Virus record (IMG/VR): IMGVR_UViG_3300005289_000003
Location: 1 to 64,000 of that record
DNA: 64,000 nt
Source of the DNA: a virus
Reading direction: 5' to 3' (one strand)
Shown: piece by piece, positions 33,164 to 58,051 of the stretch
Position numbering within the stretch: position 1 is the stretch's first letter
Layout of the letters: the number at the start of each line of letters is the position of its first letter
Notes under the pieces: generated by a model
What the model was told of the DNA's origin: nothing
Seen by the model: the letters and a program-made list of their open reading frames with translations, nothing else
The model's database searches: none
Translations under genes and position numbers: made by a program

Positions 33164-33307
33164 GAGGTACCGAAGCGAAGAAGACGGATACTTCAATGGA
33201 TAAACCGTAGGTCGTTGGTTCAAATCCAACCCTCCCAACCATTGGGAGGTAGCTCAGTGGTTAGAGCAACGGTGAAAAGACTGTCTTCGATTATTTCTCG
33301 GTACCTC
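33164..33307 (+). ncRNA. Y RNA 1, YrlA-like (circularly permuted tRNA domain)
   Basis: terminal stem + GAAGCG-N8-GGATACTTC...TATTTCTC; T arm, acceptor, D arm order. Confidence 0.85.
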
Positions 33308-33313
33308 CCAGTT

Positions 33314-33453
33314 TGGCACTGAAGCGGAAGGTAAGGGTTACTCCTAATATGAATAGGGTAGACCAGGTTCGAATCCTGGCCGCTCCACAATAAGGGGCGG
33401 TAGTGTAATGGCAGCACACTAAAAATACCCAAACCTAATATTTCTCAGTGCCA
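33314..33453 (+). ncRNA. Y RNA 2, YrlA-like (circularly permuted tRNA domain)
   Basis: same conserved helix; CCAGG-TTCGAAT-CCTGG, then acceptor, then D arm. Confidence 0.85.
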
Positions 33454-33460
33454 CCCAGTT

Positions 33461-33976: not shown

Positions 33977-35584
33977 ATGGGAAAGCTAGGTAAGCAAAGC
34001 GCAAAGCTTCAGGTGGAAAGTGCGAACAAGAAGGCTGGACTGATTCGCACCAGCGGGGGAAAGACCACCACTCATGAAGGTGGAACCGGGCACCTACGCG
34101 ATACCAAGTCGGAACTATTCCTTCTTGGTGTTACCAACATGGTGTCTGAGCAAACCTTCTATGAGCGCGGTTCGGATCGTGACAAGCGCTTTATGGGTCT
34201 GCTCATCACGGTGACCCATCAGGATGCCGATTGGGTATCTCGGTTCCTACCGTGGCTACGCGGACCAGGCAACATGAGAACCGCTTCTATCGTCGGTGCG
34301 GCTGTCTATGCCCGCACCGTCCTGTCCATGGCTCCTGAGGCACGTGAGGCTCTTTACAGGGCTTTCCCTGGGGCCACGGTCCGGAAGGTTGTGGCGTCCG
34401 TCCTACAGCGTCCCGACGAACCAGCAGAGTTCATCTCCTACTGGCTTCAGGGAAGTGACACCAAGACGCTTCCTGGTGGCGTGCAGCGTGGTCTAGCCGA
34501 CGCGGTAAAGCGTCTGTACACGGAACGGAACTCCCTGAAGTACGACGGACAGAACCAGCCATGGCGTATGTCTGACGTGATTCAGTTGGTTCACCCGGAC
34601 CCTGATACTGAGGTTCAGTCTCTTCTTTTCGATTACCTTGCCAAGAAGCGCTTCAGCGGAAGCGAAGCGGTAATCCCAGACGAACTCTTGATGCTTCAGG
34701 CAAACAGGAAGCTCTACGAAATCCCTCAGGAGCTACGTCGGGAGCGTCTGGCAGCAGACCCGAAGTCAATGGCTACCATTCTCCGGAGTGGTGGCATGAC
34801 CTGGGAATCACTAGCAACGTGGCTAGGTGGTCCTCTGGGTAAGGAAGGTTGGGAGGCAATTGCTCCTAGCCTGGGAATCTTCGCTCTGGTCCGGAACCTT
34901 CGGAACATCAGTGAAGCTGGAGTGAGCAACGAGGTTCAGGAAGCCCTAGCGGCAAAGATTTCTGACCCTCAGGTAATTGCCAACTCTCGTATGTTCCCTC
35001 TTCGCTTCTACACGGCGTATCGGGAAGCCACGAACGTCATATGGAGCTACCCCCTTGAGAAGGCCCTGATGGCTTCTCTGGGGAACATTCCGAAGTTGGA
35101 CGGCCGAACGCTGGTACTGATCGACCAATCAGGTTCGATGAATTTTTCTATGTCGAACAAGTCCACCGTGCGACTCTCGGAACAGGCTGCCTTGTTCGGT
35201 ATCGCTCTGGGCATGGCTGCCGACAATGCGGATGTCTACGTCTACGGGAATTCTCACAAGGAAATCCCGCTACCCAAGGGTGGTTCAATCCTGCCGCTTG
35301 TCGCTAAGTACGGTCAGGCTGATATGGGTGGAACCCAGACATGGACCACTGCCAGATCCCTTTACCGGGGTCATGACAGAATCGTTATCGTGACGGATGA
35401 GCAGAGCCACGATAGCGCGTACGGAATTCCGGATATCCCCATCGTGACCTTCAACGTTGAGGGCTACAAGGCTGCCCACACGGAATCCTCAAAGAAGAGA
35501 ATCACCGTGGGTGGTCTGTCGGATGGTGGGTTCAGCCTGATTCAGGCCATGGACTCCGCCGGTAAGGGTGAGTGGCCTTTCTGA
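33977..35584 (+). CDS. rsr: Ro60/Rsr TROVE-domain RNA-binding protein with vWA domain
   Basis: TTTHEGG.G, FYE, R.D, KY, H P, TWE, ALVRNLRN, SRMFP.RFY; vWA MIDAS DQSGSM, GGT, TDEQ. Confidence 0.93.
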   Translation: MGKLGKQSAKLQVESANKKAGLIRTSGGKTTTHEGGTGHLRDTKSELFLLGVTNMVSEQTFYERGSDRDKRFMGLLITVTHQDADWVSRFLPWLRGPGNMRTASIVGAAVYARTVLSMAPEAREALYRAFPGATVRKVVASVLQRPDEPAEFISYWLQGSDTKTLPGGVQRGLADAVKRLYTERNSLKYDGQNQPWRMSDVIQLVHPDPDTEVQSLLFDYLAKKRFSGSEAVIPDELLMLQANRKLYEIPQELRRERLAADPKSMATILRSGGMTWESLATWLGGPLGKEGWEAIAPSLGIFALVRNLRNISEAGVSNEVQEALAAKISDPQVIANSRMFPLRFYTAYREATNVIWSYPLEKALMASLGNIPKLDGRTLVLIDQSGSMNFSMSNKSTVRLSEQAALFGIALGMAADNADVYVYGNSHKEIPLPKGGSILPLVAKYGQADMGGTQTWTTARSLYRGHDRIVIVTDEQSHDSAYGIPDIPIVTFNVEGYKAAHTESSKKRITVGGLSDGGFSLIQAMDSAGKGEWPF

Positions 35585-35978: not shown

Positions 35979-36401
35979 ATGCCTATTTGCCATGTCTGCT
36001 CAAAAGAAGTCGATAGATACGCCAACAACAAGCGTTGCCGAGAATGCTATAACGAATATATGCGCGAATATATGAAAAAGCGCTTTCACCAAAAGCGTGC
36101 AGAAATGATAGCCATTCTTGGTGGCGTTTGTGTTCATTGTGGAACTACAGAAAAGCTGGAATTCGACCACATATTTGAGAATACCAAATCATGGGATATA
36201 GGTAAGATTTGGGGACACCGTAAAGTAATAGCTGAATTGAAGAAGATTCAGTTGCTATGCAATAGCTGCCACAAAAAGAAGTCAGCTAGATATATGAGTG
36301 TTGACCATGGTGGCGGTCTATCTGGTAAAGATGGTTGCAAATGTACAAAGTGCAAAGCACGCAAAGCAGAATATATGAAGAAATACAATAAGCCCCGTTA
36401 G
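35979..36401 (+). CDS. HNH endonuclease inserted in tRNA cluster
   Basis: CVHCG...LEFDHI...QLLCNSCHKKK; AT-rich. Confidence 0.88.
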   Translation: MPICHVCSKEVDRYANNKRCRECYNEYMREYMKKRFHQKRAEMIAILGGVCVHCGTTEKLEFDHIFENTKSWDIGKIWGHRKVIAELKKIQLLCNSCHKKKSARYMSVDHGGGLSGKDGCKCTKCKARKAEYMKKYNKPR

Positions 36402-39402: not shown

Positions 39403-40427
39403 TACATGCCACAACACCAATACGTTATTGACCCACGTACCGGTGAAGTGGACATGGCTGCATACGAAGCAGAAGGCCACAAAGGCTCACTCTGCTTCGT
39501 GTGTGGCGCCCACGTCTGTGCAGCCTCCTGCACGTCTCACAGAGGCAGGCTGATACCGCTAGACGTAGCCCAGTGTCGTGGGGCGGAAACTACCTTCTTT
39601 GTCGTCTACGAAGCTTCTACCTACACGTCTCTTTCTTTCCACCTTTCGAAGGTAGGGGCGCAGAGCTACGTTTCAAAGCGGCTAGAGAAGGATCGTTCTA
39701 GCGGTAAGGTTCACCAATACGTAGACCCCTACCCGATCGTAGAGGAGCCGCTATGTCTCTAGGTTCGACAGGGGTCGGTTATAAGATCCTGTTGTTTGTT
39801 GTCAGGGCTAACTTCCTGATGACTGATCTATATGACAACATTATGCGTATCCTCTTCGGTACAGAAGCTTTTGATGACGCGCAAATGAGGGTTTACAATG
39901 AGCGCGTCAAGAGAGAGCAAGAGGAAGAAGGGGAGGATGCCACGGGGTAAGGGCAAGCAGGGTCGGGAGGGCCGTAGGCTTAAAGCTGAGAGCCTGAGAG
40001 TCCTTAGGGAGTCCCGTAGCCTAGGTGAGCAACTGGATTTGCTAGACGCTCGCCTAGGGCCTAACAGAGGGGCATCACGGGAGCGCCAGCGTCTCCTATA
40101 TGAGTCGGCAGCTAGGAACAATGACCGTGCTCAACAAGAGGCAAAGGACTTTTCGATGATTGGCCGGAAGAGACGAAAGTAGGTTCTCGATGGATAGAGA
40201 GCAGGTTTCATTTTTTCTGGATTCGCAAGCATTGAGAAATTATGAACCGCTCTCTATCCAGAGAGTAGTAACTGATATTCTTTGTGGCGACTTTGACAAT
40301 CAACTAGATCTAATAACGGCCACCATTGCGAGACGCAAACACATTCTTTTGATTGCACCTAAAATGCGCCGTATCGTCCTACGGCGGGCAGTTGTACTGA
40401 AGAGAACCGGTAGGAAGGTTAACGGGG

Positions 40428-52378: not shown

Positions 52379-52412
52379 AGAAGGGCCGTGGCTTTTGCCA
52401 CGGCCCTTTCTC
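52378..52412. terminator. bidirectional terminator
   Basis: GAGAAGGGCCGTGGC-TTTT-GCCACGGCCCTTTCTC. Confidence 0.85.
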
Positions 52413-53170: not shown

Positions 53171-53973
53171 TCCTAAAGCCTCTCAAACTGCCGTAGGGGA
53201 CCTGAGGCAGCCTCCCGGGGTGTTCGTACCGGGCAGACGTTCTCAGGTCCCCTACGGGGCTTCTAGGCCCCTTCCTGGGGCCTCACTGAACCAGGGTGGT
53301 CACTACGTCCCTGATCACTTGCTTGCGATTCCAGTGCTTGCCCGTACCCGTCTTCAGGTCCATGGACATCAGGCCCAATTGCACGGACAGATCGTGCAGC
53401 GCTTGAGCAAGCTCTAGGTCTTCATCCGTTGGCTTCCGGCTACCCATTCAGACCAGCCCTTCCAGTTCCTGAGGCTTCCCGAAGTGAGAGAACAGCATCG
53501 GACGTAGCTTCCGCCATTCCTCTATCGGGTCATGCTGGGTGTCGTCCGGTGCATCGTCGTCAAGTATTTCATTCAACCACTGAACGATGATGCCGCGTAC
53601 GTGCATCGCGTGCTCATGCCAGACGACGAAGGAAGCGATTTGGATTACCTCGAAGAATTCCATTGGGTCCATACTCACGGCCCAAAAGTCGGTGGCCAGC
53701 AGAGCCAGCGAACCGGTACGCGGTTCCTCGTTGTTCCGATCGGGAAGCAGAGCTTCCAGGATCCTCCGATCGTTCTGGAGAACTACCTCGTACCGTTCGG
53801 CCCACTCCTCCGGAATATCTCCGGTCGACATCTTGTCAAAAAGATCCCATACAGCACTCACGTTAATTACCTCCCTATAGTTGCCTCTTCCGATGAAGAG
53901 GCTACGTGCCTTTCCCTGGTTTCGCACCATAAGCCGCTTTCCGAAGAAAGCACTTGGGTAAGGCCACCTTGGT

Positions 53974-54713: not shown

Positions 54714-54953
54714 TTAGCGGACAGGGTTGGGAAGTTCGTTGATGACCACGCGACCGTAACCGAACTTGTCGGTAAGCCGCGCGTAGTACTCATCCGGGGT
54801 CTGGCCATTGTGTACGTACTCGCCATCAATGGCCGTGATGTGGCCCTTGAAGACTTCCAGGATGCCGGCCAGGGACCAAGGAACCTCACTGATGTCTGTG
54901 TCCTGGTAGACCATGACGGCGAGGTTGGTCCGCTTTGGCTTGATACCCAACAT
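54714..54953 (-). CDS. hypothetical protein
   Basis: AAGGAGG SD. Confidence 0.7.
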   Translation of the reverse strand: MLGIKPKRTNLAVMVYQDTDISEVPWSLAGILEVFKGHITAIDGEYVHNGQTPDEYYARLTDKFGYGRVVINELPNPVR

Positions 54954-54993: not shown

Positions 54994-55041
54994 CTCCCCT
55001 ACCTGGGATCAAACCCGCAAGCTCTAAGGCTAGGAAGGGGA
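54994..55041 (-). ncRNA. anticodon-less mini-tRNA-like element D
   Basis: TCCCCT../..AGGGGA stem, short hairpin, GGG-TTTGAT-CCC T-like arm. Confidence 0.5.
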
Positions 55042-55048
55042 TCCGGCC

Positions 55049-55291
55049 CTAAAGCCGGGATAGGTCTTCCTTGACGTCGTGGCCGATGTGCTGGACATCA
55101 ACGCTGACGTGGTGAATGTAGTGGCCGAAACCGTGAAGACCACCCATGGTGGTAATGCTGGCGTGGACGGCAGGTTCCGCGTGAATCACCAGGGCCATGA
55201 ACTCCACCGCCAGGATGAAGAGGAAGAACAGCAGAGACGATCCACTGTCGATCCGGTAGAAGGCAAGCTTGTCACGGGTGGCCTGAACCAT
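55049..55291 (-). CDS. small membrane protein
   Basis: AAGGAGG SD; TM segment. Confidence 0.65.
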   Translation of the reverse strand: MVQATRDKLAFYRIDSGSSLLFFLFILAVEFMALVIHAEPAVHASITTMGGLHGFGHYIHHVSVDVQHIGHDVKEDLSRL

Positions 55292-55326
55292 TTTCTTTCC
55301 TCCTTGTTTGTTGAACTTGCATTGCG

Positions 55327-55375
55327 CGCCCTATTCGCCATCAAAGGCCACGGTGTCACTGCTGACCCGTAGGGC
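55327..55375 (-). ncRNA. anticodon-less mini-tRNA-like element C
   Basis: GCCCTA/TAGGGC stem, hairpin, GCC-TTTGAT-GGC arm. Confidence 0.45.
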
Positions 55376-55545
55376 TTGTGTTCACTCCTTCTCGGTGAAC
55401 TTAAACGCTGGTGGGAAATCTACTATCTGCCCGTCAGGAAGTTCCAACTTGGTCCACATGACCCACTGAGTTGGTATTACTATCCTTCCGACTATTTCGA
55501 AAGCAGAAGTCCCATACACGGTTTCCACTGAAACTTTGTAGGTCA

Positions 55546-55767
55546 TCACGGTATGTTCCCTCTTACTACATTGAACTTCTCGTCTCTAGCTGTAACCCAG
55601 AGACGTTCCGTTAGCGTGCTGGTGTCTATTGCCGTGAAGCCAACATCATCGATAAACAACCCTGGGGTTATCTCTATCTGAGTGTCAGTGTCTATCTCCT
55701 TAACTACCCAGTAGGTTTTATCAGAGAGGAAGACATCACCTTTCATCAACTGGTGAGCCTCTTTCAC
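55546..55767 (-). CDS. small hypothetical protein (AxxLxxGD family)
   Basis: EAHQLMKGDVF...YWVV. Confidence 0.65.
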   Translation of the reverse strand: MKEAHQLMKGDVFLSDKTYWVVKEIDTDTQIEITPGLFIDDVGFTAIDTSTLTERLWVTARDEKFNVVRGNIP

Positions 55768-55976
55768 TGCTCCTCCACGATCTTCCAGAACGACGCGCGG
55801 TAGTTTCCGGAGGGAAGGTCACCGGAGTGGACCTTCACACGGAGTTCATAGAACCCCTTGACCGTGTTGTAACCGTAGCCGTTGATGGTTCCGAAGATGG
55901 GCACATTCCCCATCTGGAAGGTGAATCGAACCTTCTTGCCGATTGCGTATTCAACCGGCTTGATTACCTTTGGCAT
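55764..55976 (-). CDS. small KOW/SH3-like hypothetical protein
   Basis: AAGGAGG SD; YAIGKKVRF. Confidence 0.7.
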   Translation of the reverse strand: MPKVIKPVEYAIGKKVRFTFQMGNVPIFGTINGYGYNTVKGFYELRVKVHSGDLPSGNYRASFWKIVEEQ

Positions 55977-56007
55977 TTCCTTCCCTCCTTTGTTTTGCCT
56001 TGTTACG

Positions 56008-56057
56008 TGGGTTTGCTGGATTCGAACCAGGCCATCCGCTCCATCTAGCGCTAACCC
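56008..56057 (-). ncRNA. anticodon-less mini-tRNA-like element B
   Basis: GGGTTAG-CGCTAGATGGAGCG-..-CTGGTTCGAATCCAG-CAAACCC-A. Confidence 0.7.
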
Positions 56058-56403
56058 TGGGGCTTACCAGCCCCTTGCCTTCTTGTACTCTCGTTGACTC
56101 TTGCGGCTACTGAAGTAACGCCCGACCTTTTCGAACTGGTTACCGACCATGATGATCAGAATATGCAGCCAAAAAACAATGGCAATCAATGCCAAGACTG
56201 CAAGGACTGCACAAATTGGCGCAAAGAAACCGATTAGGAAAGCGTTCGCTGATTGGTCCATGGTCAGTCCATTTCCGCAAGCTTGCCGATCAGGCTAAAG
56301 ATGAAGTAGAACAAAGCGAAAGCGCCTAGTCCCCCGAAGATTCCAAGGATTGGCGCCAGGATCTCCATCATTTGACTTCCTCCTTTTAGTTGATTTCCTT
56401 ACG

Positions 56404-56452
56404 TGGGTGCCGCCGGATTTGAACCGGTTAACGCTCCATCTAGCGCGGTCCC
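56404..56452 (-). ncRNA. anticodon-less mini-tRNA-like element A
   Basis: GGGACCG-CGCTAGATGGAGCG-TTAA-CCGGTTCAAATCCGG-CGGCACCC-A. Confidence 0.7.
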
Positions 56453-56462
56453 TGCCTGTTAC

Positions 56463-57509
56463 TTAGAACGCCCGTGCCACGTCCCATGCCTTGTCCAGCG
56501 CGCTGGTAAGCGCGGGAACCGACTCCAGGACACGGCGCGCGTTGGCCTCTGCCCTGGTCTCGCCAGAGCGCGTCTGCACGCGCCCCGGAAGGTGCTGGGT
56601 GACTTCCACCGTGGCGTTCAACCACCCTGCCGCCGTGCCGCTAATGTCCGCCGTAGTGGCCGAACGGAGGGCACCGAAAAGGGCCTCCCGCTGCTTCTCC
56701 ATCACGGTCTGGCCACGCTTGGAGTCCTTCTCTCCCCACCCGTAAAGGTCGGTCCACGCGGCCAAAGCCTGATCGGCCGTGACCCGAGTGTTGAGAAGTT
56801 CCCGATAGTCCGCGATCCACTTCTCAAGGTCAGCGTCACCCTTGGCAAGGATCTTCTGAACCGTCGCGTCAATCTTCGACGGAGCTAGGGCACTGTGCTT
56901 GATGCTCACAGCACCCATGACCTTGGAAGAAGTCATCAGGTTCGCGCACACCCGCCGGATCCCCCGAAGAGAAACCCTCAGGGCCGTCTTGCCGTTGTTG
57001 CCAAGGTCCAGTTGCCACCGGAAAGCGATAACCTCCCGGCTTTCAACCTGACGCTTGGCCACATCCGAATACGCCGTAGTCGTGAAGTCCGCTGACTTGT
57101 GTTCGAACACCAACCGGGTAACCGGCCCTGGAACGATGCTCATCAGTGGGTGACCCGTGGCGGTAATAGCGTCCACCAGGGGAACAACCTCTTCCGGAAG
57201 GATGAAGTTGAAGCCCTCCGAAGCCTGCCCGAACCGAACCGATTCCCGATCCGGCCCGAAGTTGTGGACGATGATTGCCGCTTCGGACGCTGGCGCCATG
57301 TGGATGTTTCCGCGTGAGTCCATCGCGCTCTGGGGAGCGGTTTCCGCTTCCCACCCGAAAAGACCCGCGTCGTTCATGGCCTGGTTCGCGTTCTCCATGT
57401 TGCCCTGAACCGTCGACAGAAGCTCAAACGGGTCAAGAACCCCGTTAGCAGCAACGGCGAATTCCTGGCGGTCCAGACCAGCGGAGAAGATTTCCATTTC
57501 GCGAGACAT
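56463..57509 (-). CDS. DUF932/DUF945-like protein
   Basis: R.VC.N motif, I.H, GT..G.LNA..E; AAGGAGG SD. Confidence 0.7.
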   Translation of the reverse strand: MSREMEIFSAGLDRQEFAVAANGVLDPFELLSTVQGNMENANQAMNDAGLFGWEAETAPQSAMDSRGNIHMAPASEAAIIVHNFGPDRESVRFGQASEGFNFILPEEVVPLVDAITATGHPLMSIVPGPVTRLVFEHKSADFTTTAYSDVAKRQVESREVIAFRWQLDLGNNGKTALRVSLRGIRRVCANLMTSSKVMGAVSIKHSALAPSKIDATVQKILAKGDADLEKWIADYRELLNTRVTADQALAAWTDLYGWGEKDSKRGQTVMEKQREALFGALRSATTADISGTAAGWLNATVEVTQHLPGRVQTRSGETRAEANARRVLESVPALTSALDKAWDVARAF

Positions 57510-57544
57510 TCCATTTCCTCCTTATAGTGTTGCATTACCTTGCG

Positions 57545-57617
57545 CGCTCCAAAGGGGAATCCAACCCCTGTCTTCTGGTTGAGAGCCAGAGATCCTAAGC
57601 AATTGAACGATTGGAGC
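57545..57617 (-). tRNA. atypical tRNA-Glu(CTC)
   Basis: GCTCCAA/TTGGAGC acceptor, loop CTCTCAA; T-loop TTGGATT; D-loop lacks GG. Confidence 0.65.
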
Positions 57618-57790: not shown

Positions 57791-57820
57791 ACTATGGGGG
57801 ACGGACACCCCGCCAGTCAA
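57791..57820 (-). promoter_or_regulatory. early promoter of the leftward operon
   Basis: AGAAAGTTC-TTGACT-18-CATAGT. Confidence 0.7.
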
Positions 57821-58051
57821 GAACTTTCTTCAAGATTTTTTATAAACCTGTGACCTGGGGTTTTTGGTAATCAGCAACCAGGACGGGCAACCGGACGGCC
57901 CGGAACCTGCCTCCCAGGTGGAGGGACGCGCGCCTACGCGCGTACGTGCGTGCGCGTACGTGGGAGGGCCTGAGAGCCACCAGGAGCACTGAACCTGCCC
58001 CCGGACATGCCAAAGGCCCGGACCGTTGGGGTCCGGGCCTCTCTGTGGCTC

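Follow-up and report, generated by a model that had tools for sequence, protein, structure and literature searches.

Serial tRNA-like elements in the spacers of a phage operon: candidate RNase P/RNase Z processing signals

The stretch of DNA analysed here (hereafter the window) comprises the first 64 kb of the 86,444-bp IMG/VR record IMGVR_UViG_3300005289_000003, which belongs to an uncultured phage and has direct terminal repeats at its ends, and our subject is a series of small tRNA-like elements lying between the genes of an operon on its minus strand. An earlier note on this DNA had described four such elements of about 50 nucleotides (nt), and all four were found on the minus strand where it had placed them, namely E1 (56404..56452), E2 (56008..56057), E3 (55327..55375) and E4 (54994..55041); a fifth element on the same strand, E5 (53907..53964), can now be added. 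E1 to E5 are all located in long spacers of one operon of ~5.4 kb that is predicted to be driven by a host promoter.

All components of the operon are on the minus strand and include tRNA-Glu(CUC), a gene for a DUF932 protein and about a dozen small open reading frames (ORFs). A sigma-70-like promoter (TTGACT-18-CATAGT, 57791..57820, minus strand) lies at the head of the operon, with a terminator-like hairpin (58012-58042) upstream of it, and a strong intrinsic terminator (52381..52408, minus strand) is present at the end. Junctions between ORFs are mostly overlapping or short; six spacers are long, and each of the six contains a structured element. The last long spacer (53171..53285, minus strand; z = -5.6) carries two hairpins, one of ~22 base pairs (bp), which are not tRNA-like. 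The tRNA-Glu(CUC) gene (57544..57617, minus strand) is followed by G73-C-G-C-A and then by a Shine-Dalgarno (SD) sequence, with an ATG 35 nt downstream, and the first protein gene of the operon encodes the DUF932 protein of 348 amino acids (aa; 56463..57509, minus strand). This tRNA had been called degenerate in the earlier note, which correctly saw that it heads the operon in the same context as the elements; with a score of 54 bits it is not degenerate but merely unusual in its T loop and in lacking GG in the D loop. Its T loop is UUGGAUU, in which G replaces C56, and GC replaces G18G19 in its D loop (AAUUGCUUA); it is possible that a swapped elbow pair, C19:G56, would preserve the 19:56 tertiary contact.

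The elements share a common genomic context with this real tRNA, which occupies, at the head of the operon, the slot equivalent to theirs. Each of E1 to E5 starts 6-10 nt after a stop codon (10 nt after that of the DUF932 gene for E1, 6 nt for E2 and E3, 7 nt for E4 and 9 nt for E5); proximity to a stop codon had previously been noticed for at least three elements and actually applies to all of the original four. An A is found at position -1 of E1 to E4, and the trailer N73-C-G-(T/C)-A is common to E1-E5 and tRNA-Glu(CUC). An A-rich single-stranded tract follows each element, and a start codon is then reached after a strong SD sequence, which is AAGGAGG after E1-E4 and AGGGAGG after E5. The distance from the end of the element to the start codon is 31-40 nt for E1-E4 (an ATG at 32 nt for E1 and at 31 nt for E2) and 45 nt for E5. 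The NCG(C/T)A trailer, A-rich spacer and AAGGAGG sequence reported before for all four elements are therefore confirmed.

E1 and E2 are the most tRNA-like of the series. The acceptor-like closing stem of E1 (GGG.CCG/CGG..CCC) consists of 3+3 bp around an internal loop, and is followed inward by a D-like hairpin (CGCT-AGATGG-AGCG), the linker TTAA and a T arm (CCGG-TTCAAAT-CCGG), with A73 and CGTAA at the 3' side. Its paralog E2 has an acceptor stem of 7 bp with one A.A mismatch (GGGTTAG/CAAACCC), the same D-like hairpin, the linker GATGGC and the T arm CTGG-TTCGAAT-CCAG, again with A73 and CGTAA. The D-like hairpin contains GG in both elements, and the anticodon arm is absent. When the two are aligned, 37 of 51 columns are identical, including the whole 14-nt hairpin CGCTAGATGGAGCG (14/14), and the T arm follows the consensus C(C/T)GG-TTC(A/G)AAT-CC(G/A)G with a nearly invariant loop, in agreement with the identical hairpin and TTCRAAT loops noted earlier for two elements. 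Differences concentrate in the linker (TTAA versus GATGGC) and in the acceptor at positions 4-6; a pair in the T stem and another in the acceptor stem are altered on both sides, from C-G to T-A, a comparison that involves two paralogs only. The T-arm motif GGTTCRANYCC is present in E1 (GGTTCAAATCC) and in E2 (GGTTCGAATCC), and its stricter form GGTTCRAATCC occurs in the 86-kb genome only in tRNAs, two Y-RNA-like units, E1 and E2. Since the genes flanking E1 and E2 are unrelated, a unit of ~55 nt including the trailer CGTAA was duplicated alone.

A covariance model built from E1 and E2 (R1) scores both of them at 72 bits, and nothing else in 86.6 kb scores above 21 bits. The runners-up are true tRNAs aligned with their anticodon arm as an insertion, of which tRNA-His reaches 20.9 bits (E=0.007). 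Because R1 finds only E1 and E2 in the genome and its next matches are true tRNAs, the pair can be considered both tRNA-derived and specific. On sequence evidence, E1 and E2 are thus real paralogous tRNA-derived elements, that is, 'top-half' mimics without an anticodon arm.

E3, E4 and E5 are weaker. E3 has a 6-bp closing stem (GCCCTA/TAGGGC), a 7-bp hairpin and a 3-bp hairpin (GCC-TTTGAT-GGC), followed by G73 and CGCA, and its likeness to a tRNA is weak. A repeat that E3 shares with coding sequence (54817-54841) does not exceed what chance would give. E4 has a 10-bp closing stem with one mismatch and two hairpins (AGC-CTTAGA-GCT and GGG-TTTGAT-CCC), also followed by G73 and CGCA, and the three-way fold proposed for it is also that of minimum energy (-18.0 kcal/mol). 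Common to E3 and E4 are a 3-bp stem around TTTGAT (GCC/GGC and GGG/CCC, respectively), TAGGG and GCGCA, and by these features they form a separate related pair; the TTTGAT loop is compatible with the minimal T-loop rule U-N-N-R-A. Neither R1 nor the Rfam tRNA model RF00005 gives any match to E3 or E4. E5 possesses a 7-bp closing stem with one mismatch (GCCTTAC/GAAAGGC), a long UUCG-capped hairpin and a T-like arm (TGG-TGCGAAA-CCA), its tail is A73 followed by CGTA as in E1 and E2, and its whole spacer has z = -3.6. The motif GGTTCRANYCC is absent from E3 and E4 (TTTGAT loop, 3-bp stems) and from E5 (TGCGAAA loop). Probably, E3, E4 and E5 are more degenerate versions of the E1/E2 type. The acceptor, D and T anatomy without an anticodon arm that had been proposed for four elements therefore stands for E1 and E2, as the R1 score of 72 bits indicates, and is not upheld for E3 and E4, whose tRNA-likeness taken alone does not exceed chance.

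We also tested whether the elements belong to known classes. Under a canonical tRNA criterion (at least 29 bits with RF00005 and a four-arm cloverleaf with an anticodon arm), none of E1-E4 qualifies: E2 stays below the cut-off, RF00005 does not match the other three, and ARAGORN calls none of them. Closing stems of the type seen in the t-elements of plant mitochondria are found in all four (7 bp with one mismatch in E2, 3+3 bp in E1, 6 bp in E3 and 10 bp with one mismatch in E4), and the full operational definition of a plant-mitochondrial t-element, GGTTCRANYCC plus a closing stem, is satisfied by E1 and E2. For the bacterial Y RNA family YrlA (RF02553), the region 52-64 kb gave no match at E values as high as 10, and the long terminal helix of that family is absent from the elements; apart from the weak RF00005 score of E2, neither YrlA nor any other Rfam family matches them. 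A second covariance model (R2) was built from seven clean anticodon-arm-less tRNA-like elements of other phages and comprises U8-A9, a 4-bp D stem with an 8-nt loop, an 8-9-nt linker, a 5-bp T stem and a 7-bp acceptor. R2 recovers every true tRNA of the genome (16.6-39.6 bits). Compared with the clean elements of other phages, E1 and E2 appear to be a more reduced form. Two weak R2 matches (L010:1389-1436 and window 39559-39610) were dismissed on inspection.

The elements occur in a genome that is rich in tRNAs. The record contains 25 tRNA genes, 23 of which lie on the plus strand at 21.8-38 kb, scattered between small ORFs, and the phage also codes for DnaB, a DnaE-type polymerase, RecA and a TROVE/Ro60 protein. 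Position 74 is C in all 25 tRNA genes, CCA is encoded in none, G75 is found in 15 and A or T at position -1 in 22; a CCA-adding enzyme (PF01743) and RtcB (PF01139) were both searched for in the phage and neither was found. The Gln, Trp, Ser-GCT, Pro, Leu-TAG and Glu-CUC tRNAs are placed just 5' of an SD sequence and ATG. Between 36392 and 36986 (plus strand), tRNA genes and ORFs abut without a gap: C74 of tRNA-Lys(UUU) is immediately followed by the start codon ATG of a 77-aa ORF (36467), C74 of tRNA-Ala by that of a 67-aa ORF (36774), and the G in the stop codon TAG of the 77-aa ORF is also G1 of tRNA-Ala (36700). Upstream, the 3' end of a 140-aa ORF (35979-36401) reaches 10 nt into tRNA-Lys. 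The 77-aa ORF abutting tRNA-Lys has no homologue but itself. As this packing leaves no space for a leader, cleavage at the tRNA 3' end that makes the mRNA 5' end would be the simplest explanation. It suggests that such cleavage may define the mRNA 5' ends of the ORFs abutting tRNA-Lys and tRNA-Ala and that the butt-joined tRNAs may give rise to leaderless mRNAs via tRNA processing; possibly, the cuts would leave some mRNAs without a complete stop codon.

Further upstream on the plus strand, two circularly permuted tRNA-like units (33164-33460) are located just upstream of the TROVE/Ro60 gene (33977-35584). Their parts are arranged in the order T arm, 3' acceptor strand, 6-nt loop, 5' acceptor strand and D arm, and the first unit gives a sub-threshold YrlA match (38.3 bits, 33181-33290).

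Relatives of the locus are distant. No match was found when the region was compared with 50,697 phage records (megablast of the region and tblastn of the DUF932 protein), and no cultured phage is similar to the operon region in DNA or protein sequence. In the protein database, the DUF932 protein has homologues of 84% (P0002) and 75% (P0003) identity; a search of IMG/VR with the single DUF932 protein returned no related loci, and a search with a DUF932 alignment returned only relatives at 44-52% identity. In one distant DUF932 relative (L001), a degenerate 69-nt tRNA-like element lies three small ORFs past the DUF932 gene, directly 5' of an SD sequence and ATG. The same relative has a YrlA-like unit adjoining a tRNA-Met (L001:7447-7509, minus strand, 42.3 bits), and Y-RNA-like modules may be a trait of this phage group. 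Another relative (L002:56-98, plus strand) carries a 43-nt minihelix with a perfect 7-bp acceptor, a 12-nt connector and a perfect canonical T arm, after which come A-C and the ATG of a membrane ORF of 36 aa that lacks an SD sequence; the minihelix's best Rfam match, mascRNA-menRNA (26.2 bits, E=0.1), is not significant.

Outside this group, neither an exact pattern of the D hairpin and T loop in IMG/VR (no match) nor blastn of E2 against phage records (chance or T-arm matches only) revealed copies of the elements. IMG/VR was also scanned with patterns that require a D arm and then a T arm within 2-18 nt and leave the acceptor stem outside the pattern. Within a tRNA cluster of a 408-kb phage, one element (L026:143-193, minus strand) is matched by R1 at 31.9 bits (E=2e-5). 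Seven anticodon-arm-less elements from unrelated phages (L039:12856-12913(-), L041:12860-12917(-), L042:7165-7223(+), L047:1383-1441(-), L049:1574-1631(+), L051:4011-4068(+) and L053:3641-3699(-)) have canonical D and T arms with 8-9 nt between them, and 98% of the cells of their 7-bp acceptor stems are paired, compared with 72% in shuffles. Including L026, the eight have 6-9 nt in place of the anticodon arm. Some elements of this kind lie within tRNA arrays and some alone before a terminator, and in L051 and L053 the acceptor stem is extended by a helix 7-9 bp longer. Putative tRNA-like elements without an anticodon arm are thus recurrent in phages.

Taken together, the reading that fits best is that E1-E5 are t-element-like processing signals for RNase P and RNase Z, to which we give about an even chance of being right. 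The operon would be transcribed as one RNA, considering that it has one promoter and one terminator. Every closing stem would then be cut on its 5' side by host RNase P, and a second cut, after N73 or C74, would be made by RNase Z or an activity equivalent to it, the positions being those expected from the established substrate rules of the two enzymes. Neither enzyme needs a complete tRNA: a stack of acceptor and T stem of ~11-13 bp is a sufficient substrate for RNase P as well as RNase Z. Such cuts would yield mRNA pieces of separate stability, all of them beginning ~30 nt 5' of a strong SD sequence, and would also free RNAs of ~50 nt. A role in processing had already been suggested in the earlier note, and the tRNA-like flank signature, the real tRNA at the head of the operon, the ORFs whose ATG follows C74 and the elements preceding ORFs in relatives speak for it; only two of the four elements are demonstrably tRNA-derived. 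A wider version of the proposal, in which tRNAs, mimics and minihelices throughout the genome would serve as RNase P/Z cut marks that set the ends of mRNAs in a mitochondrion-like punctuation (including leaderless mRNAs with AUG after C74), and the freed mini-tRNAs would gain CCA and persist as elbow/acceptor decoys or as Ro60/Y-RNA clients, seems quite improbable.

Several observations weigh against processing signals of tRNA type. The acceptor stems of E1 (internal loop/bulge) and E2 (A.A mismatch) are imperfect, the U8-A9 linker is absent from both, RF00005 gives only 12.8 bits for E2 (E=0.55) and no match for E1, and the R2 scores of E1 (11.6 bits) and E2 (13.4 bits) reflect local T-arm matches only. 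The folding energies of E1 and E2 are equal to those of shuffled sequences (z about 0), the tRNA-like fold lies above the minimum-energy fold by 1.3 kcal/mol in E1 and 4.0 kcal/mol in E2, and RNAalifold favours for the pair a single long hairpin in which the D region pairs with the T region. A loose descriptor of an acceptor plus a T-like arm that catches E3 has 9 matches in the genome and a mean of 9.45 in dinucleotide shuffles; as shuffles match equally often, structure alone does not make E3 or E4 tRNA-like, and the descriptor was rejected as evidence. In addition, relatives at ~47% identity share with the phage no small ORFs and no orthologous spacers, and one relative (L003) is without any such element.

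These imperfect stems and poor tRNA-model scores of E1 and E2, together with E3 and E4 being barely tRNA-like, would suit decaying tRNA genes that lost the anticodon arm by deletion of a hairpin, have no function and owe their flanks to ancestral tRNA slots. The richness of the phage in tRNAs interleaved with ORFs agrees with decay, as does the fact that clean anticodon-less tRNAs of other phages often adjoin true tRNAs and could be recent deletions. We nevertheless consider decay unlikely, since the E1/E2 module was duplicated into two spacers at the same distance to stop codon and SD sequence, the copies kept the D hairpin and T loop but not the linker after the duplication, with changes on both sides of two stem pairs, and five consecutive spacers have elements with the same trailer. 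It might also be argued that the elements are structured intergenic RNAs independent of RNase P and RNase Z, with a tRNA resemblance that is historical, possibly acting as 5' or 3' stabilisers, as targets of RNase E, J or III, or as insulators that uncouple translation of neighbouring cistrons. All long spacers of the operon are structured, two of them not or only loosely tRNA-like (z = -3.6 and -5.6), an A-rich single-stranded tract follows each element, and the long-hairpin fold of E1 and E2 is as good as the tRNA-like one. Such a reading would leave unexplained why E1 and E2 retain a canonical T loop and a GG-containing D loop and why the N73-C74-G75 pattern of the real tRNAs recurs in the trailer, and we regard it as improbable.

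Alternatively, the freed ~50-nt RNAs themselves could be the functional product, as elbow/acceptor decoys for tRNA-binding factors or for host defences that target tRNAs, as Ro60/Y-RNA clients, or as anticodon-independent carriers of amino acids. The genome encodes Ro60/TROVE and YrlA-like units, conservation between E1 and E2 is highest in the D-loop GG and T loop that an elbow requires, and other phages have stand-alone anticodon-less tRNA-like genes with their own terminators. A convincing elbow is, however, absent from E3, E4 and E5, and no YrlA or other Rfam family matches the elements; a released functional RNA seems very improbable. The idea of elbow decoys or Ro60 ligands, which had also been raised in the earlier note, finds no support beyond the TROVE gene and the Y-RNA-like units elsewhere in the genome.

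If the elements are RNase P/Z cut marks, a bacteriophage would organise the processing of an operon with stripped-down tRNA mimics, a principle already established for mitochondria and a few eukaryotic long RNAs. This would account for the tRNAs interleaved with small ORFs in tRNA-rich phages, for C74 without CCA in all 25 tRNAs and for a possible leaderless translation of ORFs abutting a tRNA, and it would give annotators a new class of intergenic feature. Our literature searches found no paper on such elements in phage operons or mRNAs.

Several known systems can be compared with the elements. In mitochondria, tRNAs butt-joined to ORFs are the cutting marks of polycistronic RNA, a tRNA punctuation reportedly described by Ojala and colleagues in 1981. 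The phage resembles this arrangement in that two ORFs begin right after C74 of a tRNA and the G of one stop codon doubles as G1 of a tRNA; the operon differs in having reduced mimics in place of full tRNAs, in ORFs that retain SD leaders and in processing that is predicted here. The mascRNA/MEN-beta RNAs (RF01684) provide a tRNA-like fold within a long transcript that is cut by RNase P and RNase Z. They are similar in their tRNA-like fold, and their family is the best, though not significant, Rfam match of the L002 minihelix; they are eukaryotic and nuclear and form a cloverleaf with a small anticodon arm, and their model does not match E1-E4. The predicted anticodon-arm-less elements of other phages in IMG/VR are built like E1 and E2 from an acceptor, a D arm, a short linker and a T arm, whereas most of them have canonical U8-A9, a full D arm and perfect stems, and they adjoin true tRNAs or stand alone with terminators.

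Bacterial YrlA Y RNAs (RF02553; PMC4201824) are tRNA mimics with D and T arms that do not take part in decoding. E1 and E2 are likewise non-decoding mimics with D-like and T arms, and YrlA-like units are present in the same genome beside Ro60. In YrlA, the acceptor end of the tRNA module is closed and the Ro-binding helix extends from the place where an anticodon would be, whereas E1 and E2 lack a helix of this kind and have their opening at the acceptor end. Finally, the t-elements of plant mitochondria are degenerate tRNA-like folds in polycistronic transcripts that are identified by GGTTCRANYCC and a closing acceptor-like stem (Forner et al. 2007, PMC1920247); RNase P and RNase Z generate 5' and 3' termini of mRNAs at their ends, and t-elements set free in this way bear a non-encoded C at the 3' end (PMC1920247). 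In contrast to them, the phage elements belong to a bacterial phage and not to an organelle, are known here from sequence, and form a serial array with fixed spacing to stop codon and SD sequence, and E1 and E2 retain a D-like hairpin. With the plant t-elements, E1 and E2 have in common the same motif, a closing stem and a position between cistrons.

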